Under the pieces are notes generated by a model, which saw only the letters and a program-made list of their open reading frames with translations, did not search any database and was not told where the DNA came from. A stretch of DNA of 64,000 nt from the IMG/VR virus record IMGVR_UViG_3300036886_000043, positions 1-64,000 of that record, one strand, 5' to 3'. Origin of the DNA: a virus. The first letter of the stretch is position 1; each line of letters begins with the position of its first letter. The position numbers and the translations under genes were made by a program. Positions 18,141 through 50,655 of this stretch are shown one piece after another.

Positions 18141-18573
18141 CGCCTTCAAACTTCAAGCATCGGAAGTAGAACGAATCCGAGAGATGGTCCCAACCGTAGA
18201 CGAGTTGAGGATCATCGACTTAATGAGGGATTACCGCTCTATACGCAAGAACTATTTTGGGAACAGCATCCCTCCAACTGAAGAGATTCTAATTCGGTTT
18301 CTCCCGCGCAATGAGATGGGCAGACTCAGCGGATCTAAGGATCGGGATACCGATGGATATTGCTCATGCGGGAAACATCATGGAACTCCGGTCCCGCAAA
18401 CATTATCCTTGGTAGACGATCTTGATGTTAACCAGACAAGGATCACTCTCCTTCATGAAATGGCGCACATGAAGGTAAACACGAAGTTCGGCCGCGCCAT
18501 GAAACATGGTAAGAATTTCAAAAAAGAACTGCGGCGGCTTATGGCGGCTGGCGCATTTGATGATTGGTTGTAA
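18127..18573 (+). CDS. SprT-like zinc metalloprotease
   Basis: YFGN...TLLHEMAH...HGKNFK. Confidence 0.8.
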   Translation: MKKNSAFKLQASEVERIREMVPTVDELRIIDLMRDYRSIRKNYFGNSIPPTEEILIRFLPRNEMGRLSGSKDRDTDGYCSCGKHHGTPVPQTLSLVDDLDVNQTRITLLHEMAHMKVNTKFGRAMKHGKNFKKELRRLMAAGAFDDWL

Positions 18574-18575
18574 TC

Positions 18576-20792
18576 ATGTCGATCATTCGAGCCAATAAGT
18601 ACCTCGGCGAGATCATTGAGATCCTCGACATGCACCGGCAGAAGTATCGGGCCGGGGACATCGGGGACGACGAAGCGAGAGCCTCGTTATCATCTGGCGA
18701 CAACGAGTGGATTGACGGCGAGATGTACCATAGCCTGACCGACACGCGATATTTTCTATCCAACTACTACGCCATCCGAACCGAAGATAAAGGCTTCCAA
18801 GGTCTCTACCCATTCTTTGACAGCCAAGAGATTCTCTATGAGGAACTGCGGAAGCTGGAAAAGAAGAATGGCCGTGTACGGGCAATGGTTGCCAAGGCCC
18901 GACGCATGGGGTACACGACTTACATGGTTGGGGAATTCCTTCACAAGACAGTTATACGCTACAAGCACACCGACGCAATCATTGTGTCCCAGGACGAAAA
19001 GGGCGCGAAATACAACATGGGAATGTACGAATCGGCTTTCGACTTCCTGCCGTGGTGGATGAAGCCGAGAGTCAACCTGCATCAGACTGGAGCCCTCTAT
19101 AACTTCGATGAACCGGATGAGAACTTACGAGCACGGCGCCCAGGATTGAAGAACTGGGTGTATGCCGACAACGCTAATCGACCTTCGGGCGTTGGCCGCG
19201 GTCAAGGATTCCGCTGCGGGATGTTGGATGAGTTGGCTTTCTGGAAGAATTCCTCTCAGCTTTCAAAGTCACTGTTGAGGACGTTTGTCGCCCGAGACGG
19301 TTTCTACGTGATGGGATCGACAGGAAACGGTCGTAACGATGCGTGGCACAACTTGTGGAGACGTGCCGAGGCGGGATCAATCGACTGGAATCCGATCTTC
19401 ATTCCGTTCTATCGTAGGCCGAAAACCTACTCGCTTCCGATTCCGAAGGGAGAGGTCTTTGAACTGAGTCCCGAAGAGAAAGAAATGGTGGAGCAGGTTA
19501 AGCAAAAAGAGAACTTCACCATCTCAAAGGAAACGATCAACTGGATGCGGAAAACCAAAGAAGAATTCGTTGCAACGGACGGCGACGACATGCTCTTCTC
19601 TCAGGAATATCCGACCAACGCAGAAGATAGTTTCCAGAACGCGATTATTTCCGCGATCCCGAGAGGCATCATAAATCGCTACAGCAAGCGGACTGTACAG
19701 CCGGTATGGATTGGGGAAATTAGTTTCGACTTCGTAAAGTGGCTTCCCCATCTTTACATGAAGGAACTGAAGCCGGGAGAAGAAGCGCTCTATCCCGAAA
19801 TAGAAAATCGGCTGCATCTTTGGGAAAAGCCGCAACCGGGAGAGAGATATTGCGTCGGTGTAGACGTAGCTCTTGGCCAGAAAGGCGGAGACTATTCTTC
19901 ATGCACGGTGATGAAAATCAGCGCACGCGCACAATTAGACGCGCAGGTAGCGCAGTGGCATGGATACATGGACCCGCACAATCTGACGGACATCGTGCTT
20001 GCGTTAGGCTGGTACTACAACGAAGCTCTGATAGCCGTCGAAGTAAACTCGTTTGGTATGGCGACGAATACGCGGCTGATGCGCGACTACGAGTATGAGC
20101 AGATTTATCGGTTCAAGCGCATGGACCGCCTAAAGCATTTCATGACAGACATCGTTGGATTCTGGACTGATTACAAGTCGAAGAGGACGTTAATCTCCTT
20201 CTTCTCAAAGATGATGCTCGACGACCAAGTGCTCATTCGAGACAAGTACCTGATCGACGAATTGAGGGATTTCACCGAAGATGGAGCGGAAGGTGAAGGG
20301 GCACACGATGACCTGGTGATGAGCGCCATGATTGCTCTCTACTGCGGGCATGAAGGTGAATTTGAAGAGAGACGCCAGAGGCCGGCAGAGGCCGCAAAGG
20401 ACAAAAACAATTACATCGTCTACAAGATGCAGGTGATGGATGGGATGCAGATTCCAGTGAAACTATTTCAGTCTGCATCTCCATTCGAGGCTGAAAAGTT
20501 CGCAAAGAAAAAAATCGGCTCTTACATCATCAACGAGCATGGAGCGATGGCGGATTTGGTTCTCAAGCGAAAGAATGAAAAGGGAGAGTTGGAGTCGGTC
20601 ACAAAGCGCGTGCCAGCGGATTTTCAAAACACTGCGTACAGCCCAATTCACGATAGGCCGGGGACGCGGCAACGAATGTTTGATGAGGGGATTCCTGCCG
20701 AGATGATCGATTCAGAGAGCGCAGCGGAGTTCGATGCTCGGCAGGAAGACGAGGAATTAGTGAGCGATTCAGATTCATGGAAGTGGTCCTGA
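18576..20792 (+). CDS. terL: Terminase large subunit
   Basis: KARRMGYTT Walker A variant, LDELAFW Walker B, STGNG, FSQEYP, GVDVALG and HDDLVMS RNase H-like nuclease. Confidence 0.92.
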   Translation: MSIIRANKYLGEIIEILDMHRQKYRAGDIGDDEARASLSSGDNEWIDGEMYHSLTDTRYFLSNYYAIRTEDKGFQGLYPFFDSQEILYEELRKLEKKNGRVRAMVAKARRMGYTTYMVGEFLHKTVIRYKHTDAIIVSQDEKGAKYNMGMYESAFDFLPWWMKPRVNLHQTGALYNFDEPDENLRARRPGLKNWVYADNANRPSGVGRGQGFRCGMLDELAFWKNSSQLSKSLLRTFVARDGFYVMGSTGNGRNDAWHNLWRRAEAGSIDWNPIFIPFYRRPKTYSLPIPKGEVFELSPEEKEMVEQVKQKENFTISKETINWMRKTKEEFVATDGDDMLFSQEYPTNAEDSFQNAIISAIPRGIINRYSKRTVQPVWIGEISFDFVKWLPHLYMKELKPGEEALYPEIENRLHLWEKPQPGERYCVGVDVALGQKGGDYSSCTVMKISARAQLDAQVAQWHGYMDPHNLTDIVLALGWYYNEALIAVEVNSFGMATNTRLMRDYEYEQIYRFKRMDRLKHFMTDIVGFWTDYKSKRTLISFFSKMMLDDQVLIRDKYLIDELRDFTEDGAEGEGAHDDLVMSAMIALYCGHEGEFEERRQRPAEAAKDKNNYIVYKMQVMDGMQIPVKLFQSASPFEAEKFAKKKIGSYIINEHGAMADLVLKRKNEKGELESVTKRVPADFQNTAYSPIHDRPGTRQRMFDEGIPAEMIDSESAAEFDARQEDEELVSDSDSWKWS

Positions 20793-44200: not shown

Positions 44201-44589
44201 TGTCTGCCTTCGCGTACCTCTATCAAGCCGCAGTTGAGGCTCTGGTGCTGCCGAGGACGCGGAAAACCGTAGATACCTACGACCTGAATTGCGGATTTGC
44301 AGACTCGAAATACTGCAAGGATTTTTGGGCACAGTACACGGCTACGGCTCCGATCAACGTGCAAGTGTATTATGACGACAACGCAACCCCAGGGTTCACT
44401 TTCACGATGCCTCAAGCCGGAGGCGTCAGGAACCCTCTTAGGGTAAGATTACCGGCAGTCTCATTCAGGACGATCCGCGTGGTAGCGGAATCGACAGGGG
44501 ACTTTCTCTGGTGGCCCGATACCTGTCTTTGGGTCAAGCCCCAGTGCGCTTCGAGGGGCTATGAGAAGGTGTTGATTGTTGAGAACTAA
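41248..44589 (+). CDS. Tail nozzle/tubular protein B-like virion protein
   Basis: 1113 aa beta-rich; Y.Y..TF....GTESNPS, IYRRGGT, LYFS, HGCVAP beta-propeller patterns. Confidence 0.7.
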   Translation: MPDAVYKEYPLIFQSKGIFARQVDDLVDPQGLLNEDNVEELAEGAYAQKLGSVLVNAQGTIGQPVYPLSGKVVSLSKLGQLAGAYARYAVTADGALWRRSLLSAGQFTKISTSFSGSPCSIQSYCNTDFTSVSTEFFADAAGMFKDDGTFAAPQQMGIFQPQFPVQAQAQPPSSVILDNYVTSAGSYSYTGISGGTNAGYVNTTIPAGVPAAGLQSVTVVDPTQPGLFQLLTVDSGGNAETVLVLLVTPTGFVANFTKIHSSGVTVTSADLSVSVPASTTATISASFGILPCGAKPILVNWPVTNQPLQQADYLGLYLFVSDPTQIQSITLKLDCGDGSFDSDYFYKVIAQGPLQNLVSSATSSTDPTTALTDALLSDSLNLYGNQAGGIGELNTGLDNWTPLLFQLSDFAGSGRADFNDPVYNWANVNGYQIQIVTNDNTSVTVNLAALVLFGGAGPDTLGGVAYDYVWTFFNPVDGTESNPSMIVTNQNPPNQTNRVYPRRQPVLLNMDVTTYGPLGQLQDGQIGYLRIYRRGGTLGDNFRRVDQIPVNIAAGGIVQYIDTAPDYLVAGADIVSFTNDVPVPSLLPVPVNTTLMTPIYTENQVTNVFPVSMANISVRQQVTIGSPTAIANNFETVIVLTLDEASFTAFVQNAHAAGEPVQASYQVGQPVYGMVIAFNKAWYWGDPNNPSTLYFSTGNAPQYVGEANNVIVSTPDDYITTVKPYKGNIFVSCVKSGWWMIPPGSPASQPPYPTACVHGCVAPFGAVATEEMILYQAADGIRAFAGGASEYMSLPIEFIFQGVGSTPIVEADQTKLSQTVAAYWNSMVFFSYIGTDGNRHRVIAHAQYKRFRNDDVDAQCLLLEADTNQLLYGDSNGLVHIDRQNLPYDQVNSGGVLAAGPIAINLQTAYSFQGSPANQKQYQAVQIDCNTGGQTLNVNLLFNDGEITVALGTISNAQRGKINLPVNLGLGQQAYKISLQITGNVSAFAYLYQAAVEALVLPRTRKTVDTYDLNCGFADSKYCKDFWAQYTATAPINVQVYYDDNATPGFTFTMPQAGGVRNPLRVRLPAVSFRTIRVVAESTGDFLWWPDTCLWVKPQCASRGYEKVLIVEN

Positions 44590-44615
44590 GGTGTATGCTG
44601 TATCTGAGGTGATTT

Positions 44616-44783
44616 ATGCTCAACATCATTTTGGTAATTCTGATGTTTCTGTGCGGATTTGGCGGATATGCGATCCCAGTTACGCAGCCGGCCGGTTTCC
44701 GGTATGGCGTCGGTCTTCTCGGCGCTGTGCTTTTTATCTTGTTTTGCCTCATCAACCTTGGCCTGATTCACCCAGGGCTATAA
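44616..44783 (+). CDS. Small two-TM membrane protein
   Basis: GAGG RBS; MLNIILVILMFLCG...GLLGAVLFILFCLINLG. Confidence 0.6.
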   Translation: MLNIILVILMFLCGFGGYAIPVTQPAGFRYGVGLLGAVLFILFCLINLGLIHPGL

Positions 44784-44786
44784 GCG

Positions 44787-44951
44787 ATGATTATCTTGCT
44801 CATCATTGTTCTAGTTCTGCTCTTTGGCGGCGGCTTCGGTTACTACGGCCACACTCAATGGGGCGCGAATAACGTCTATGCAGGGCCGGGAATCGGCCTT
44901 GGAACCATCCTGATTATCCTGCTGATTCTGTTCCTGCTCGGCGTCATTTGA
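44787..44951 (+). CDS. DUF3309-like small membrane protein
   Basis: MIILLIIVLVLLFGGGFGYYG...WG...GIGLGTILIILLILFLLG. Confidence 0.65.
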   Translation: MIILLIIVLVLLFGGGFGYYGHTQWGANNVYAGPGIGLGTILIILLILFLLGVI

Positions 44952-45046
44952 GTCGTGTCCGCATGTGCATGTAGGACAGTGTTTAGTCGTTCCCGCTCTG
45001 TGGAAATCTCTCCGGTTGTCGAGAAGGGGTTACTATTCAGGTAGCC

Positions 45047-45075
45047 TTGACGCAAATCATTTTCCGTGCGATGAT
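45047..45075 (+). promoter_or_regulatory. Promoter of tRNA block 1
   Basis: TTGACG-17-GATGAT with TGn extension; ATG 6 nt after the -10. Confidence 0.7.
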
Positions 45076-45081
45076 TTTGAT

Positions 45082-45153
45082 ATGAGATTTGACCGCAACA
45101 GTTTATGCCTCTCCTATTCACTCCTGTCGAGTGACGGGGAGGCTGCGGTCTGA
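45082..45153 (+). CDS. Attenuator leader peptide 1 MRFDRNSLCLSYSLLSSDGEAAV
   Basis: 11 consecutive Ser/Leu/Cys/Tyr codons; precedes terminator and the Leu/Cys/Ser/Tyr tRNAs. Confidence 0.8.
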   Translation: MRFDRNSLCLSYSLLSSDGEAAV

Positions 45154-45180
45154 TTCCAAAGTTTGGAATTTCAGCGAAGC

Positions 45181-45204
45181 GGCCTCCAGAAATGGAGGCT
45201 TTTT
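45181..45204 (+). terminator. Attenuator terminator 1
   Basis: GGCCTCCA-GAAA-TGGAGGCT-TTTT; alternative pairing 45138-45146 with 45179-45187. Confidence 0.85.
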
Positions 45205-45209
45205 GTTGT

Positions 45210-45293
45210 GCGGGATTGGCGAAACGGCAGCCGCGCCCGATTTAAGATCGGGTGTCTTAGGACGTGGGAGTTCAAGTCTCCCATCCCGCACCA
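45210..45293 (+). tRNA. tRNA-Leu(TAA)
   Basis: Cloverleaf, long variable arm, encoded CCA. Confidence 0.9.
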
Positions 45294-45294
45294 T

Positions 45295-45371
45295 GTATCG
45301 GAAGGTAAAGTTTTGGAACCAGTGGTCCGCAAAACCACTTTTAGCCGGTGGGACTCCGGCCCGGTACTCCA
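45295..45371 (+). tRNA. tRNA-Cys(GCA), atypical T-loop
   Basis: GTGGT-CCGCAAA-ACCAC; U73; CCA. Confidence 0.8.
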
Positions 45372-45383
45372 AAGTTTAGTAGT

Positions 45384-45462
45384 GCTCGCGTAGCCCAATT
45401 TGGCAGGAGGCACTTCATTCAAAACGAAGACAGTGCTGGTTCAAATCCAGCCGCGAGTACCA
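45384..45462 (+). tRNA. tRNA-Leu(CAA), short variable region
   Basis: Loop TTCAAAA; TTCAAAT T-loop; CCA. Confidence 0.85.
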
Positions 45463-45470
45463 AAATATGT

Positions 45471-45549
45471 GCCCCGTTAGCCCAATTGGCAGGAGGCGTC
45501 TGACTTAGGATCAGAACAGTGATGAGTTCGAATCTCTCACGGGGTACCA
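45471..45549 (+). tRNA. tRNA-Leu(TAG), short variable region
   Basis: TCTGA-CTTAGGA-TCAGA; CCA. Confidence 0.85.
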
Positions 45550-45593
45550 AAATTTAGATTGCAACGGGTACCAATCTACTGTAAAATATTGGT

Positions 45594-46193
45594 ATGAATG
45601 GTGATTCGAGTATTTGCAATGGATGTGGTTTAAGTGAGCCAGAAGTGAGATTTCGATTGCGGAAGGCGAACGGGAAAACTTACAGAAAACACTTGTGTAC
45701 AAAATGTGATGATGAATATCAAAAGAAGTACACTAAACCTCAAGGCGTAAAAGATAGGAATAGAAAATCGTATCTGAAAAGAAAGGAGAGAAGAGCACGG
45801 GGAGAAATAGTCGAGATTTTCCTTCTTGAGGACTGTCGAAGAATTGACAGAAAAAAAGGTATCAAATCCGATTTAGACTCTGAATATATTGCGGAGATAA
45901 TAAAGGATGGATGCGCGTATTGCGGAGATATAGAATCACGCATTGGGCTTGATCGGATAGATAATTCACTGGGCCACATGAAGGGAAATGTTAACGCCTG
46001 TTGTATGAGATGTAATCTTATTCGTAGGGATATGCCATACGAAGCATGGCTGATTGTAGCGCCCACGATGAAGATTGCGAGAGAATCAAAAGCGTTTGGG
46101 AATTGGAATGTGCTTTTTGGAAACAAGAAGAAAACGGAGCGCGGGCCGGACGATAAGGCAACGGGTTGCTACCCCGCACAGCCGCAAGGCTGA
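45594..46193 (+). CDS. HNH-type endonuclease inside tRNA array
   Basis: CAYCG...GLDRIDNSLGH...NVNACC..CN; AT-rich; own promoter TTGCAA-17-TAAAAT at 45559-45587. Confidence 0.8.
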   Translation: MNGDSSICNGCGLSEPEVRFRLRKANGKTYRKHLCTKCDDEYQKKYTKPQGVKDRNRKSYLKRKERRARGEIVEIFLLEDCRRIDRKKGIKSDLDSEYIAEIIKDGCAYCGDIESRIGLDRIDNSLGHMKGNVNACCMRCNLIRRDMPYEAWLIVAPTMKIARESKAFGNWNVLFGNKKKTERGPDDKATGCYPAQPQG

Positions 46194-46221
46194 CTGAGTT
46201 TGACTCTCAGGCGCTCCGCCA
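46136..46221 (+). tRNA. tRNA-Ser(GCT)
   Basis: Long variable arm, G73, CCA. Confidence 0.85.
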
Positions 46222-46225
46222 GTTC

Positions 46226-46310
46226 GGAAGGTACCGCTGAAAGGTCGGCAAACGGTCCTGAAAACCGTGGCTCCTTCGGGATGGGCGTTCGATTCGTCTA
46301 CCTTCCGCCA
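46226..46310 (+). tRNA. tRNA-Ser(TGA)
   Basis: ACGGT-CCTGAAA-ACCGT; long variable arm; G73. Confidence 0.85.
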
Positions 46311-46315
46311 AGTTT

Positions 46316-46402
46316 GGGAGTGATGCTCTGTAGGGAGAGCAGCAGGCCGTAACCCTGCCGTCACTTGTGGCATAGGGGGTTCGATTCCCTCCACTCCCAC
46401 CA
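46316..46402 (+). tRNA. tRNA-Tyr(GTA)
   Basis: GCAGG-CCGTAAC-CCTGC; long variable arm. Confidence 0.85.
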
Positions 46403-46405
46403 TAC

Positions 46406-46434
46406 TTGTCAACACGGAAGAGTAGTGGTATACT
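46406..46434 (+). promoter_or_regulatory. Internal promoter for fMet/Asp/Glu tRNAs, no leader peptide or terminator
   Basis: TTGTCA-17-TATACT with TGn extension. Confidence 0.7.
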
Positions 46435-46439
46435 GAAAT

Positions 46440-46514
46440 CGCGGGTTGGTAGCGCAGCGTCATACGTCAGGCTCATACCCTGAAGATCCGGTGCAAATCC
46501 GGTACCCGCAACCA
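46440..46514 (+). tRNA. tRNA-Met(CAT), initiator-like
   Basis: C1:A72 mismatch; TCAGG-CTCATAC-CCTGA. Confidence 0.8.
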
Positions 46515-46515
46515 A

Positions 46516-46591
46516 GGTCACGTCGTCTAACTGGAAGGATACTTCCCTGTCTAGGAAGCTGGCGCGGGTTCGATTCCCGTCGTGATCGCCA
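46516..46591 (+). tRNA. tRNA-Asp(GTC)
   Basis: CTTCC-CTGTCTA-GGAAG; G73. Confidence 0.9.
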
Positions 46592-46597
46592 AGTTTA

Positions 46598-46676
46598 GCC
46601 GATGCACTCTGTACTGGATTCGGAGCACTCCCCTTCAAGGAGTTGGATGCGAGTTCGATTCTCGTCGTCGGCGCCA
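46598..46676 (+). tRNA. tRNA-Glu(TTC)
   Basis: ACTCC-CCTTCAA-GGAGT. Confidence 0.85.
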
Positions 46677-46684
46677 AGTTTTAC

Positions 46685-46761
46685 GGGGTCACCGTCTAAT
46701 TGGTCTGGACGCCAGATTCTCAATCTGGAAACTGTGAGTTCGATCCTCACTGGCCCTACCA
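46685..46761 (+). tRNA. tRNA-Glu(CTC)
   Basis: CCAGA-TTCTCAA-TCTGG. Confidence 0.9.
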
Positions 46762-46770
46762 GAAAATGAT

Positions 46771-46799
46771 TTGACAGAAATTGCGAACGGCGGTACAGT
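46771..46799 (+). promoter_or_regulatory. Promoter of tRNA block 2
   Basis: TTGACA-17-TACAGT. Confidence 0.8.
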
Positions 46800-46809
46800 A
46801 GAAAACGAG

Positions 46810-46878
46810 ATGAAAAACCGAGTCAATCACGGATTTACACCAGCGACGGCGCAACCGACGCAGGGTAATCCTATGTAG
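46810..46878 (+). CDS. Attenuator leader peptide 2 MKNRVNHGFTPATAQPTQGNPM
   Basis: Contains codons for all 12 downstream tRNAs; followed by antiterminator/terminator. Confidence 0.85.
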   Translation: MKNRVNHGFTPATAQPTQGNPM

Positions 46879-46903
46879 CGGCTCGTGGAGTTTGAAGCAA
46901 AGC

Positions 46904-46935
46904 GCCCACCGAGCCAATCAGCCGGTGGGTTTTTT
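46904..46935 (+). terminator. Attenuator terminator 2
   Basis: GCCCACCG/CGGTGGGT + T-run; alternative pairing 46880-46888 with 46906-46915. Confidence 0.85.
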
Positions 46936-46943
46936 GTTGATGT

Positions 46944-47019
46944 TCCAGCGTAGCAAAAAGGTAATGCGCCGCACTGTTAATGCGGAAATGTGCAGGTTCG
47001 AGTCCTGCCGCTGGAGCCA
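46944..47019 (+). tRNA. tRNA-Asn(GTT)
   Basis: CCGCA-CTGTTAA-TGCGG. Confidence 0.92.
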
Positions 47020-47028
47020 GTTTGAAGT

Positions 47029-47103
47029 TGCCCGTTCGTTCATGTGGCAGGACGGCTGACTCTGGATCAGCGGAGCGAGGTTCAAGTCCTCGACGGGCAG
47101 CCA
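47029..47103 (+). tRNA. tRNA-Gln(CTG)
   Basis: GCTGA-CTCTGGA-TCAGC. Confidence 0.92.
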
Positions 47104-47111
47104 AGTTTTAC

Positions 47112-47187
47112 AGGGAGATGGCCGAGCGGCTTAGGCGACAGCCTTTGGAACTGTCTCAGGTAGGTTCGACTCCTACTCTCCCTGCCA
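47112..47187 (+). tRNA. tRNA-Gln(TTG)
   Basis: Loop CTTTGGA; G73. Confidence 0.85.
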
Positions 47188-47188
47188 T

Positions 47189-47264
47189 GCGGACGTAGCT
47201 CAATTGGTAGAGCACAGCGTTGCCAATGCTGAGGTTGCCGGATCGTTGCCGGTCGTTCGCTCCA
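47189..47264 (+). tRNA. tRNA-Gly(GCC)
   Basis: CAGCG-TTGCCAA-TGCTG; U73; atypical T-loop. Confidence 0.88.
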
Positions 47265-47349
47265 AATTTTGGAGGTTGACATGCCGCACAGGTATCATTT
47301 CAATGCCGATCTCCGAGAAGTGTACAGAAGGCTGGCGGGACAATTTCGA

Positions 47350-47424
47350 GCACCGTTAGTTGAGTCGGCACAACACGACACTCGTAACGTCGAGGCTCCG
47401 GTTCGAGGCCGGGACGGTGCTCCA
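47350..47424 (+). tRNA. tRNA-Thr(CGT)
   Basis: Loop CTCGTAA; CCA. Confidence 0.82.
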
Positions 47425-47441
47425 GAATTGGAAGGTGAGTG

Positions 47442-47978
47442 ATGAATTTGATGCGGAAGCCGGTATTGCAGTTGAATGCAAGCTACGAGCCGCTTCGCAT
47501 CATCGCGGCAAGAAGGGCATTGACGCTCATAACCAAGGGCGTAGCCGTGGTGGAAGTGCCAACCAGCACAGTAGTCTATCCTGGCATCTACTTGCCCTCA
47601 GTGATTCGGTTGCGGACTTACCGGCATGTGCCTATTAGGATGCAGGTGATGAGCCGCAAGAACATTCTCCTTCGGGATGGCGGCCGCTGCATGTATTGCG
47701 GACAGAGGTCAAACGAATTGACGCTTGACCATGTGATTCCGCGTTCCCGTGGCGGATTGAATACGTGGGACAATCTTGTGGCTTGCTGCAAACGCGACAA
47801 TCACAAGAAGAACGACAGGACTCCAGAGGAAGCGGGAATGAACTTGATTCACAGGCCGCTTCCGCAAACGATCCACACGCCGCGGTTTGTTCTACGGTCT
47901 ATGGGTTTGGAAGTAAATGAGTGGAGCCCGTACTTGTGGGCCGACTCCGAAGGCGACAAGAAGTATGCGTTTAACTGA
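47442..47978 (+). CDS. HNH endonuclease (McrA/COG1403-like)
   Basis: VLQLNASYEP, PSVIRL, RD...CMYCG...TLDHVIPRSRGG..TWDNLVACC...N. Confidence 0.92.
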   Translation: MNLMRKPVLQLNASYEPLRIIAARRALTLITKGVAVVEVPTSTVVYPGIYLPSVIRLRTYRHVPIRMQVMSRKNILLRDGGRCMYCGQRSNELTLDHVIPRSRGGLNTWDNLVACCKRDNHKKNDRTPEEAGMNLIHRPLPQTIHTPRFVLRSMGLEVNEWSPYLWADSEGDKKYAFN

Positions 47979-48050
47979 GCCGGGTGAACATCGAATGTTG
48001 CGGGCGCTTGTATCGCTTGCTAGTGGGTTCGACTCCCACATCCGGCCCCA
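47979..48050 (+). tRNA. tRNA-Thr(TGT)
   Basis: GGGCG-CTTGTAT-CGCTT; short D-arm. Confidence 0.75.
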
Positions 48051-48060
48051 ACAAGTTCAT

Positions 48061-48135
48061 GGGGAATATCGTTCAGCGATAGGACGCTAAGTTGTGGCCT
48101 TAGTCACCGCAGTTTGATTCTGCGTATTCCCCCCA
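48061..48135 (+). tRNA. tRNA-His(GTG)
   Basis: G-1:C73; CTAAG-TTGTGGC-CTTAG. Confidence 0.88.
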
Positions 48136-48148
48136 AGTTTTAAGTAGT

Positions 48149-48223
48149 GGGCGTGTGGTGCTAATGGGAACACATCCGGCCTGCACCCGGAAGTTGAGAG
48201 TTCGATTCTCTCCATGTCCACCA
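48149..48223 (+). tRNA. tRNA-Ala(TGC)
   Basis: G3:U70; TCCGG-CCTGCAC-CCGGA. Confidence 0.9.
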
Positions 48224-48229
48224 AGTTTT

Positions 48230-48305
48230 GCCGACTTAGCTGATGAGGTCATAGCGGTCGCCTGAAGAGCGATAGAAGCCCGCTCGATACGGGCAGTCGG
48301 CACCA
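48230..48305 (+). tRNA. tRNA-Phe(GAA)
   Basis: GTCGC-CTGAAGA-GCGAT. Confidence 0.88.
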
Positions 48306-48306
48306 T

Positions 48307-48384
48307 CGGTGTGTAGCGTAGTCTGCTTAACGCGCTCCGTTCGGGACGGAGAGATCGCAGGTCGAAATCCTGCCACGCCGACCA
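48307..48384 (+). tRNA. tRNA-Pro(CGG)
   Basis: CTCCG-TTCGGGA-CGGAG. Confidence 0.9.
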
Positions 48385-48390
48385 GTTTAC

Positions 48391-48464
48391 CGGGGTGTAG
48401 TGTAAAGGAAACATCCGTGGCCTGGGACCACGTGTTGGGCTTTCGAGATGCCCCACCCCGACCA
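48391..48464 (+). tRNA. tRNA-Pro(TGG)
   Basis: CGTGG-CCTGGGA-CCACG. Confidence 0.82.
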
Positions 48465-48470
48465 ATTTAC

Positions 48471-48545
48471 GGCCCGTTCGTTCAATGGACAGGACTTCGG
48501 ATTACGAATCCGACAATCAGAGTTCGACTCTCTGGCGGGCTACCA
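48471..48545 (+). tRNA. tRNA-Arg(ACG)
   Basis: TCGGA-TTACGAA-TCCGA. Confidence 0.92.
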
Positions 48546-48546
48546 C

Positions 48547-48575
48547 TTGCAAGAAAAGAAAAGTTGATGTACAGT
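48547..48575 (+). promoter_or_regulatory. Promoter of tRNA block 3
   Basis: TTGCAA-17-TACAGT; ATG 7 nt after the -10. Confidence 0.75.
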
Positions 48576-48582
48576 GGAATTC

Positions 48583-48651
48583 ATGCAGATCAGGACCAAA
48601 CACGGAATAACCAGAATGACCAAGCGGGTCATTTGGGGGATCGTGTGTTGA
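48583..48651 (+). CDS. Attenuator leader peptide 3 MQIRTKHGITRMTKRVIWGIVC
   Basis: Contains codons for all 12 downstream tRNAs; stop codon overlaps antiterminator strand. Confidence 0.85.
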   Translation: MQIRTKHGITRMTKRVIWGIVC

Positions 48652-48677
48652 GGGTCTGAGCATTTTGGTACGCACAG

Positions 48678-48702
48678 ACCTTCGCTCAGGCGAGGGTTTT
48701 TT
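48678..48702 (+). terminator. Attenuator terminator 3
   Basis: ACCTTCGC-TCAG-GCGAGGGT + T-run; alternative pairing 48650-48658 with 48675-48683. Confidence 0.85.
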
Positions 48703-48718
48703 ATTGCTCTTTGAAAAT

Positions 48719-48793
48719 AGGGGAGTGCTGGCGGCACAGCGGTTGGTCTCCAAAACCAACGTCACGGCGGTTCGAGTCCGCTCTCCCCTGCCA
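48719..48793 (+). tRNA. tRNA-Trp(CCA)
   Basis: TTGGT-CTCCAAA-ACCAA; G73. Confidence 0.85.
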
Positions 48794-48798
48794 TTTTT

Positions 48799-48867
48799 GG
48801 CACGTACCCAAGGCGGGAAGCGATCCTCATAAGATCGTAAACTGGTTCGAGTCCAGGCGTGCTACCA
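48799..48867 (+). tRNA. tRNA-Met(CAT) elongator (or Ile2), compact D-arm
   Basis: CGATC-CTCATAA-GATCG. Confidence 0.72.
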
Positions 48868-48872
48868 GTTTT

Positions 48873-48966
48873 GGGCGATAGCACCGGCCGTGCGGCGGAG
48901 TCTTATAAACTCTGGAGAGCGCCAGATTAGCGCAACGGGAAGGATCGACACCTTCATCGCCTACCA
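48873..48966 (+). tRNA. tRNA-Ile(TAT) with long variable arm
   Basis: GGAGT-CTTATAA-ACTCT; extra GCGC/GCGC stem; CCA. Confidence 0.72.
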
Positions 48967-48969
48967 TGT

Positions 48970-49044
48970 GGGTCGCAGATGTTTTTGGCGGCATACCCGG
49001 CTCTTACCCGGAATGGCGGGGTTCGACTCCCCGGCGACCCACCA
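48970..49044 (+). tRNA. tRNA-Lys(CTT)
   Basis: Loop CTCTTAC. Confidence 0.85.
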
Positions 49045-49053
49045 TCTGTTTTC

Positions 49054-49127
49054 GGACTGCGAGTGTGATGGTGCATAACGCCCTTTTAAGGCGTTTGGAT
49101 AGAGTTCGATTCTCTAGCGGTCCACCA
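49054..49127 (+). tRNA. tRNA-Lys(TTT)
   Basis: ACGCC-CTTTTAA-GGCGT. Confidence 0.85.
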
Positions 49128-49128
49128 T

Positions 49129-49203
49129 GGCCCTATAGCTCAAGGGGATAGAGTGCGGTCTTCTAAGCCGTCGATCACCGTTCGACTCGGTGTAGGGCTC
49201 CCA
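49129..49203 (+). tRNA. tRNA-Arg(TCT)
   Basis: GCGGT-CTTCTAA-GCCGT. Confidence 0.9.
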
Positions 49204-49208
49204 GTTTT

Positions 49209-49285
49209 GCCGCTGTATCTCTCCGGTTTCCTAAACCGGCAAGAGTAGTTGGATGACGCCGGTTCGACTCCGGCCAGCGGCCCCA
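49209..49285 (+). tRNA. Non-canonical tRNA-Arg(CCT) lacking a 5' D-arm
   Basis: 7-bp acceptor, 7-nt linker, CCGGT-TTCCTAA-ACCGG, 18-nt extra region, canonical T-arm, CCA. Confidence 0.7.
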
Positions 49286-49290
49286 GGTTT

Positions 49291-49368
49291 GCTGCCGTAT
49301 TCGGTTCTGGTTCCGAACCAGAGGGCCGTAGATGGAGAAGGCAGGTTCGAGTCCTGTCGGCAGCGCCA
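49291..49368 (+). tRNA. Non-canonical tRNA-Arg(CCG) lacking a 5' D-arm
   Basis: 7-bp acceptor, 8-nt linker, TCTGG-TTCCGAA-CCAGA, 18-nt extra region, canonical T-arm, G73, CCA. Confidence 0.7.
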
Positions 49369-49373
49369 GTTTA

Positions 49374-49449
49374 GCCGGGTTCGCCCAAAGGCTTAGGGCC
49401 GATGGTCTACACCCATCTGATAGGGGTTCGAGTCCTCTACCCGGCACCA
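49374..49449 (+). tRNA. tRNA-Val(TAC)
   Basis: GATGG-TCTACAC-CCATC. Confidence 0.88.
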
Positions 49450-49454
49450 AGATT

Positions 49455-49528
49455 GTCGATGTAGCTCAGTGGTAGAGCACCGCAATGGTAATGCGGCGAC
49501 GAGGGTCCGATTCCCTCCTTCGGCTCCA
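49455..49528 (+). tRNA. tRNA-Thr(GGT)
   Basis: CCGCA-ATGGTAA-TGCGG. Confidence 0.88.
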
Positions 49529-49532
49529 TTTT

Positions 49533-49607
49533 GCCGATGTAGCTCAATGGCAGAGCATTCGCTTGATAAGCGAAAGGTCAGTGGATCAGTACCACTCATC
49601 GGCACCA
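49533..49607 (+). tRNA. tRNA-Ile(GAT)
   Basis: TTCGC-TTGATAA-GCGAA; atypical T-loop. Confidence 0.88.
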
Positions 49608-49613
49608 AGTTGA

Positions 49614-49688
49614 GCGGGATTAGCCAAGTGGAAAGGCAATGGGCTTCCAACCCATTATGCGTCGGTTCAACCCCGACATCCCGCTCCA
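49614..49688 (+). tRNA. tRNA-Gly(TCC)
   Basis: ATGGG-CTTCCAA-CCCAT; U73. Confidence 0.92.
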
Positions 49689-49719
49689 CTTTTCTGCCAA
49701 CAAGCGTTATACTACTTTC

Positions 49720-50655
49720 ATGCCGAAGTCGCCCAAACTCGGAAAGATTACATTCTCCTCTTTGTCTCTTCCAGAGCAAATCCAGATGAGCAACTTGCAG
49801 GATGCCGTGAACATCCTCGGCGGTCATTCGGGGGAAGTCGAGTTAAGCAATCATCTAAACCTCGGCGGGAACAAAATAACGAACGTGGCGGCGCCGGCCG
49901 CGGATAGCGATGTGTTGACGAGCGGAGCGGCAGAAACAAAGTATTCCGCGGCGGCTTTACGTCCGCAGCTTGAGTCGAGCGGGACGCATCCATTCGTAGG
50001 CTACAGACAAGTCAATAATCAAGGACAGCGCGAAAAAACCTCAAGCTGGCTCAACGAGCTTCTCTCTACCCCTCCGAACTCCAACAACATCAATCCCATC
50101 GTCAGTTCTTCGGGAGGCTCAACGAGCGTCACGATCCCGGCCAGCATCTTGCAGATGGGGGATGGAACCACGCGATACCTTCCTTCGCGGACGGACACGT
50201 TGACCAACCCGGCAAGCTACTCCATTACCTCGTTTACGATTGCTTTGGGAGTGGCAACGGTGGTTTTGTCCTCGACTCCATCGCCGGCTTTGGCTGCGCC
50301 TACGGTGGTGTACATTTCAGGGACGAGTGAGATTGACGGGACGTTCCCGATTGCAAGCATTGTCAGCCCGACGACGTTCACGATCAACGTAAGCAGTGGG
50401 GTGTCTGGCACTGGAGGGACGGTAGAGACGGGAGGAATCTGCTACTATTACCTCAACAAGTCATTCCAGAAGGTGATGCTATCCGTCCTTCCGTCATCTT
50501 CAGACACCCCGTTTAGGCGTCTCGGAATTTCTGGAGACGGATACCAGTTGCTTGCGGTTGTCAGCATCAATTCGAGCGGAACTGTCCAAGTGGGGACGGC
50601 CGGAGGGGGAACGCCGAGCGTCGTTAGCACAGCCAATGCAGGAAGCAGGTTCTAA
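49720..50655 (+). CDS. Probable tail/fiber-associated virion protein
   Basis: LNLGGNKITNVAAP motif; Ser/Thr-rich beta domain. Confidence 0.6.
   Translation: MPKSPKLGKITFSSLSLPEQIQMSNLQDAVNILGGHSGEVELSNHLNLGGNKITNVAAPAADSDVLTSGAAETKYSAAALRPQLESSGTHPFVGYRQVNNQGQREKTSSWLNELLSTPPNSNNINPIVSSSGGSTSVTIPASILQMGDGTTRYLPSRTDTLTNPASYSITSFTIALGVATVVLSSTPSPALAAPTVVYISGTSEIDGTFPIASIVSPTTFTINVSSGVSGTGGTVETGGICYYYLNKSFQKVMLSVLPSSSDTPFRRLGISGDGYQLLAVVSINSSGTVQVGTAGGGTPSVVSTANAGSRF

Follow-up and report, generated by a model that had tools for sequence, protein, structure and literature searches.

Introduction

What does a short open reading frame (ORF) do between the promoter and the first gene of a viral tRNA operon? 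The question is raised by IMG/VR virus record IMGVR_UViG_3300036886_000043, a complete record of 97,230 bp with direct terminal repeats, of which the first 64 kb (positions 1 to 64,000; hereafter the window) were analysed. On its + strand the window carries a tRNA gene array (45047-49690) that is divided into three blocks by three units alike in build, designated A1, A2 and A3. The initial annotation of this DNA had proposed that the ORF of unit A2 lists all 12 tRNAs of the block behind it and acts as an attenuator. Our analysis makes it probable that A2 is a ribosome-mediated (leader-peptide) transcription attenuator gating the 12-gene tRNA operon, and that it works as an anticodon-level gauge of tRNA supply.

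Leader-peptide attenuation is a textbook mechanism for amino-acid operons, and the known attenuators of this type belong to amino-acid operons and pheST (trp, his, leu, phe and the multivalent thr and ilvGMEDA). By comparison, tRNA genes are thought to be controlled at their promoters, via growth rate, the stringent response or repressors. What we propose for A2 is a known mechanism, leader-peptide attenuation, applied to a new class of target genes. A full-text search of the literature returned no description of leader-peptide attenuation of tRNA genes, phage tRNA clusters included.

Anatomy of unit A2 and its tRNA block

The components of A2 and of the block that follows it are listed below; regions 1 to 4 are the pairing segments of the predicted folds.

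46771-46799, + strand: sigma-70-type promoter with 10/12 matches in a consensus scan (-35 hexamer at 46771-46776, spacer of 17 nt, -10 hexamer at 46794-46799)
46810-46878, + strand: leader ORF of 22 sense codons plus stop (ATG at 46810, TAG at 46876-46878)
46818-46824, + strand: region 1 (codons 3-5), paired with region 2 in the predicted minimum-energy structure of the complete leader
46880-46888, + strand: region 2, 5' strand of the antiterminator, 9 nt, beginning 2 nt past the stop
46905-46915, + strand: region 3, 5' arm of the predicted terminator, common to the antiterminator
46921-46929, + strand: region 4, 3' arm of the predicted terminator, followed by six T at 46930-46935
46944-47424, + strand: tRNAs Asn(GTT), Gln(CTG), Gln(TTG), Gly(GCC) and Thr(CGT), called by ARAGORN, with 45-66 bits for the Rfam tRNA model
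47439-47978, + strand: HNH endonuclease gene within block 2 (Pfam HNH_5, 1e-14; PHROG HNH endonuclease, 2e-28)
47979-48053, + strand: tRNA-like Thr(TGT) with a small D arm, a cloverleaf and a TGT anticodon loop, ARAGORN-negative in the window
48062-48545, + strand: tRNAs His(GTG), Ala(TGC), Phe(GAA), Pro(CGG), Pro(TGG) and Arg(ACG), called by ARAGORN and Rfam

As in an attenuator, the ORF lies between the promoter and the genes, and an intrinsic terminator is predicted ahead of the first tRNA, which begins at 46944, 9 nt beyond the T run. The -35 hexamer and most of the spacer are conserved in four related phages, namely L006, L024, P45 (L058) and P36 (the reverse complement of L059). Since the start codon of the ORF is found 10 nt past the -10 hexamer, the mRNA would be leaderless or nearly so. 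The codons of the leader are exactly those read by the initial annotation, and the antiterminator strand was likewise recovered where it had been placed, immediately behind the stop codon and able to pair with 46906-46915. The terminator proposed there stands too, but its coordinates had to be corrected, the stem occupying 46905-46929 and the T run 46930-46935.

The block itself comprises 12 tRNA genes (46944-48545), as had been claimed. Eleven are found by ARAGORN at default settings, and the twelfth, Thr(TGT), is a non-canonical tRNA because its D arm is small; it was accepted as a tRNA on account of its anticodon arm and of its alignment with the Thr(TGT) homologue that ARAGORN calls in L006.

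The leader codons match the tRNAs of the block

Codon matches were counted under strict wobble and under a relaxed rule in which U34 reads whole family boxes. Of the 21 sense codons that follow the start of the A2 leader, 16 are read by its own block under strict wobble and 17 under the relaxed rule, whereas blocks 1 and 3 read just 1 and 3 of them, respectively. All 12 tRNAs of the block are covered, in agreement with the claim that each has a readable codon and that about 17 of the 21 codons are served. Paired isoacceptors receive codons of their own (CAA and CAG, ACA and ACG, CCA and CCG). Since every anticodon of the block has one codon or more in the leader and isoacceptors are listed separately, the leader would gauge the anticodon, not the amino acid; like the leader of an attenuator, it is enriched in codons by whose decoding the regulated product can be sensed.

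Two null models were used to evaluate this match. In a Monte Carlo analysis of 200,000 draws, with codons sampled from the phage's own usage, the probability of at least 16 matches was 8e-5 and that of complete coverage (12/12) was 5e-4, while none of the 200,000 draws combined both, giving a joint P < 5e-6; the chance probability for the A3 leader is likewise < 5e-6. For the empirical null, every ATG ORF of 18-26 codons in the genome (324 in total) was compared with the three blocks (972 comparisons). By both measures the A3 leader with block 3 ranked first and the A2 leader with block 2 second, and full coverage was found in these two leaders alone among the 324 ORFs. The remaining five reading frames of the A2 leader stretch yielded 5-8 matches. 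The codon match of A2 is far beyond chance.

The units are conserved in related phages

Relatives were retrieved with two queries. With the 1113-residue protein encoded upstream of the array as query, L006 (78% identity) and L002 were found, and, via a metagenome scan, L024 (53%); the conserved A3 motif led to two complete 134-kb phages, L058 and L059. The three-block array and all three units are retained in L006, L024, L058 and L059, so that three units in five phages, the window's included, provided 15 leaders for comparison. Public phage records gave no match at close DNA similarity and generic tRNA similarity alone in a distant search, a downstream protein used as query returned unrelated loci only, and the bacterial genomes scanned contained no prophage relative. 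A screen for a terminator at most 60 nt upstream of a tRNA together with a short ORF found units in this clade only, the Rctr197k array and eight other loci being negative; this screen was crude and covered little DNA.

Across the 15 leaders, own blocks read 215 of 326 sense codons (66%), against an average of 12% for each other block, and every leader matches its own block far better than the other blocks. Coverage of the own block ranges from 8/11 up to 12/12 and 13/14. The leader frame is open in all 15 cases, the differences in length preserving it. Among the A2 leaders, the set Asn, Arg, His, Gly, Phe, Thr, Pro, Ala and Gln is kept but its positions are permuted from phage to phage; such freedom of order around a constant codon set would be expected if the leader is a sensor, and not if its peptide has a function.

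The distribution of these codons along the leaders is also informative. Own-block codons account for 70-100% in the middle of the ORF; their share is 13% at codon 2 and again at the last sense codon, and 40% at either of the two codons that precede the last. Such thinning near the stop is expected because a ribosome stalled there would still mask region 2, and it supplies a sequence-level counterpart to the prediction, made in the initial annotation, that codons close to the stop matter less. The pairing elements change together as well: the A2 terminator differs in sequence among the window, L006, L024 and P45, with region 2 altered to match in each, and regions 2 and 3 of A1 co-vary likewise, separating a window/L024 type from an L006/L002 type.

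Predicted folds and ribosome masking

The whole A2 leader is predicted to fold better than shuffled sequences (z = -2.76). In its minimum-energy fold, 46818-46824 pairs with the segment just past the stop, and a stem at 46905-46929 precedes the six T; the same pairing of regions 1 and 2 occurs in the L006 fold, and for L024 and P45 it was read from the sequences. The alternative antiterminator duplex joins 46880-46888 to 46906-46915, inside the 5' arm of the terminator. Of seven leaders tested for the upstream segment that pairs best with the terminator 5' arm, six have it at the stop codon or adjacent to it.

We modelled the position of the ribosome by blocking 28 nt around the A site and folding a transcript that ends immediately ahead of the 3' arm. 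In A2, sequestration of the 5' arm is predicted with P = 0.80 for stalls at codons 2-20, with P = 0.55 at codon 21 and with P = 0.37-0.38 at the last sense codon and the stop. The model thereby reproduces the earlier suggestion that a terminating ribosome would mask the antiterminator. In this model the antiterminator would exclude the terminator and be masked by the terminating ribosome, although the z-score of the duplex is weak (see below). Units A1 and A3 of the window follow the A2 pattern.

Predicted leaderless start and the initiator-like tRNA

In seven of nine leaders (window, L006 and L024), the start codon is 6-10 nt past the -10 hexamer, and the leader mRNAs should therefore be leaderless. 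Several long ORFs of the window, including one HNH gene, also begin 6-9 nt past promoter-like -10 hexamers; examples of a promoter-like site with a near ORF start are found at 45559-45594, from 32887 onward and at 49717-49731. The sequence suggests that leaderless mRNAs are frequent in this phage, and because these long ORFs share the arrangement, the host probably translates such mRNAs.

An initiator-like tRNA-Met (46440-46514), with a C1:A72 mismatch, has its own near-consensus promoter (locus 46406-46514) and neither a leader ORF nor a terminator. The initiator-like tRNA-Met alone is carried by L003, L004 and L017, in an identical arrangement. Its lack of a leader fits an attenuator that responds to decoding, because a gauge of elongation cannot report the loss of an initiator.

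Proposed mechanism

The attenuator reading of the initial annotation is thus supported at the level of sequence and comparison, its features being all present, specific for their block and recurrent in the sister units and in four other phages. From the anatomy of the sequence, the codon statistics, the conservation in five phages and the predicted folds, we infer that the ORF would be translated, that transcription may terminate before the tRNAs and that stalling would relieve this termination.

In the mechanism that we propose, host RNA polymerase would initiate at the A2 promoter and a ribosome would load on the near-leaderless 22-codon ORF. When decoding is fast, the ribosome would reach the last codons or the stop and cover region 2, regions 3 and 4 would form the terminator, and the transcript would end at about 46935, ahead of the first tRNA. 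If a tRNA is scarce or damaged, the ribosome would instead wait at any codon from about 3 to 20, leaving region 2 free to pair with region 3 before region 4 is made; no terminator would then form and the tRNA block would be transcribed. The tRNAs produced would relieve the stall and shut the unit off, which amounts to negative feedback.

With one or two copies of each codon, the unit should be most responsive to the severe loss of one tRNA species. A response of this kind would favour a role in counter-defence or during host shut-off over the compensation of a mild codon-usage mismatch. More tentatively, A1, A2 and A3 may together constitute an anticodon-resolved sensor-and-replacement system that would keep the 36 tRNA genes of the array quiet and switch on only the block with the lost tRNA. 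The trigger could be, for instance, the cleavage of a host tRNA by anti-phage anticodon nucleases, or its exhaustion after shut-off of host tRNA synthesis.

Evidence against the attenuator and alternative explanations

Several observations weigh against A2 being such an attenuator. The regulatory codons occur once or twice each, in contrast to the runs of classical attenuators, and the sensitivity of A2 to a mild tRNA shortage is doubtful. The start site, the translation and the termination of A2 are all predicted, and its ORF, which has no Shine-Dalgarno sequence, relies on leaderless initiation. Regarding the folds, the A2 antiterminator duplex, taken by itself, does not exceed shuffled sequences in strength (z = -0.54). 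A pairing of regions 1 and 2, as a pause or anti-antiterminator, would give termination in the absence of translation, but the truncated A2 transcript still sequesters the 5' arm without a ribosome (0.80), so that either termination or read-through may be the default. The masking model fails for A3 of L006, and in P36 the T run of the A2 terminator is poor. Lastly, tRNA gain or loss does not co-vary on a fine scale with the leader codons among the relatives compared: the codons for Thr(GGT), Ile(TAT) and Pro(CGG) persist in the leaders of L024, and those for Ala and Pro(CGG) in the leaders of P36, although these tRNAs are missing from the respective phages, while an extra Pro(GGG) of P45 is absent from its leader. 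Because small differences in tRNA content are not mirrored, the leaders are conserved per-block lists rather than exact inventories.

Some of these observations would suit an attenuator that responds to general translation capacity, that is, to the status of ribosomes or of elongation, with the codon list as a by-product. Codons present just once or twice would give a single tRNA weak leverage, and the retention of codons for tRNAs lost in some relatives points the same way. We nevertheless regard this explanation as unlikely, given that a general gauge needs no block-specific codon set, whereas all 15 leaders fit their own block at the rates reported above, and that paired isoacceptors are listed separately.

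Another possibility is that promoter and terminator just separate independent tRNA transcription units, each terminator also ending the preceding block, with an ORF that is untranslated or encodes a small peptide of its own and a codon match due to chance or composition. The matches of A2 and A3, each with a chance probability below 5e-6 and both the top outliers of the genome, recur in four other phages, and the unconserved order of the peptide argues against a functional product; this possibility is very improbable. Most improbable, by a small further step, is that the leader RNA, untranslated and with an incidental ORF, binds tRNAs directly by codon-anticodon contact in the manner of a T-box, a scheme which has the same terminator/antiterminator logic and from which codon match alone cannot distinguish attenuation, but in which all listed codons would not be expected in a single ATG-to-stop frame that stays open in 15 leaders despite changes in length, nor cognate codons that thin exactly where the footprint of a ribosome predicts, nor a start codon spaced from the -10 hexamer by a short and constant interval in 7/9 leaders, and for which Rfam offers no T-box or other known leader RNA.

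The sister units A1 and A3 and the tRNA array

The two other units are organised in the same way as A2.

45047-45209, + strand: unit A1, with promoter, leader ORF (45082-45153), palindrome (45154-45168) and terminator (45179-45201)
48547-48706, + strand: unit A3, with promoter, leader ORF (48583-48651), region 2 (48650-48659) and terminator (48675-48699)

A1 heads a Leu/Cys/Ser/Tyr block that continues with Met, Asp and Glu, and A3 a Trp/Met/Ile/Lys/Arg/Val/Thr/Gly block. The A3 leader has 17/21 codon matches to its own block and covers 12/12 tRNAs; the corresponding values for A1 are 11/22 matches (14 under the relaxed rule) and 9/11 tRNAs.

At default settings ARAGORN detects 28 tRNAs across the array, and a relaxed threshold adds three, namely Ser(GCT), Ser(TGA) and the initiator-like Met. 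Low-threshold ARAGORN calls in the gaps of the array proved spurious; manual cloverleaf checks, used in their place, add Cys(GCA), Thr(TGT) and two odd Arg genes (CCT and CCG). The array total is 36 tRNAs, with all 20 amino acids represented, and two HNH endonuclease genes interrupt it.

The two odd tRNA-like genes, Arg(CCT) and Arg(CCG) (window 49209-49282 and 49290-49365), have normal acceptor, anticodon and T arms, just 7-8 nt at the place of the D arm and a long segment 3' of the anticodon arm. Genes built in this way are also present in L006 (three at 20023-20262, including Arg(TCT)) and in L024 (20345-20420). The codons that correspond to Arg(CCT) and Arg(CCG), AGG and CGG, both occur in the A3 leader.

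The window contains 15 copies of a 13-nt palindrome with a free central base (expected number, 0.02), to which a protein may bind. One copy (45155-45167) lies between the A1 stop codon and the A1 terminator and is retained in L006, L002 and L024; another (47261-47273) is positioned 3' of tRNA-Gly(GCC), directly before a promoter-like TTGACA at 47274.

Unusual genes were also noted in the relatives. A tRNA of L059 (9922-9993, minus strand; 65 bits) has the anticodon TCA, which would read UGA, and could be a suppressor or recoding tRNA. The Leu cluster of L058 contains a 96-nt tRNA-like gene (1567-1662) with an apparent insertion in or near the anticodon arm, whose assignment by ARAGORN to Ala(TGC) is doubtful.

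Relation to known regulatory systems

Like the known leader-peptide attenuators, A2 has a promoter-proximal short ORF with regulatory codons, predicted 1:2, 2:3 and 3:4 pairings and a predicted terminator before the genes; in both, a ribosome at the stop would favour termination and a stalled ribosome read-through. Unlike them, it would control tRNAs instead of biosynthetic enzymes or a synthetase. Its leader names up to 12 anticodon specificities from nine amino acids with almost no redundancy, whereas classical leaders have runs for one to three amino acids. The separate listing of isoacceptors, the predicted leaderless mRNA and the phage-borne location, with three units in series and one per block, further set it apart.

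In T-box riboswitches, too, the status of a tRNA sets the choice between terminator and antiterminator. A T-box, marked by a stem I with a specifier loop and by the conserved T-box sequence of its antiterminator, binds one uncharged tRNA directly, and translation is not needed; A2 differs from it in its conserved ORF. An Rfam scan of 44500-50200, with E-values up to 1, found no T-box and no known cis-regulatory family in the leaders. As to gene content, the array resembles the tRNA clusters of other phages (T4, T5, mycobacteriophages, Rctr197k), which are dense and often split by HNH endonuclease genes.

Among published systems, the closest is the trn operon of Anabaena sp. PCC 7120, a long inducible tRNA array that responds to translational stress via the repressor TrcR (PMC8421152, PMC10272220). 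The parallel lies in arrays that are supernumerary, horizontally spread, silent by default and induced when translation is impaired (PMC8421152, PMC10272220). The Anabaena response is global, whereas that proposed for A2 would proceed codon by codon. Attenuation is mentioned in neither of these papers, and the terms 'leader' and 'terminator' are also absent from PMC8421152. The gene rtcB is associated with Anabaena-type arrays; among the phages studied here, L006 has a gene for an RtcB RNA ligase (18236-19414; Pfam, 2e-69) within its array, between block 2 and A3, and no RtcB was found in the window's phage.

Significance

If A2 operates as we propose, it would establish a direct feedback loop that links the decoding of codons to the synthesis of tRNAs, and it would account for how phages whose tRNA sets are nearly complete keep from expressing them needlessly. 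As a compact and programmable sensor of the availability of single tRNAs, such an attenuator could also serve as a tool. The mechanism would further connect, in a way open to testing, with the current question of what tRNA genes do for phages, namely codon supply or escape from defences that target tRNAs.

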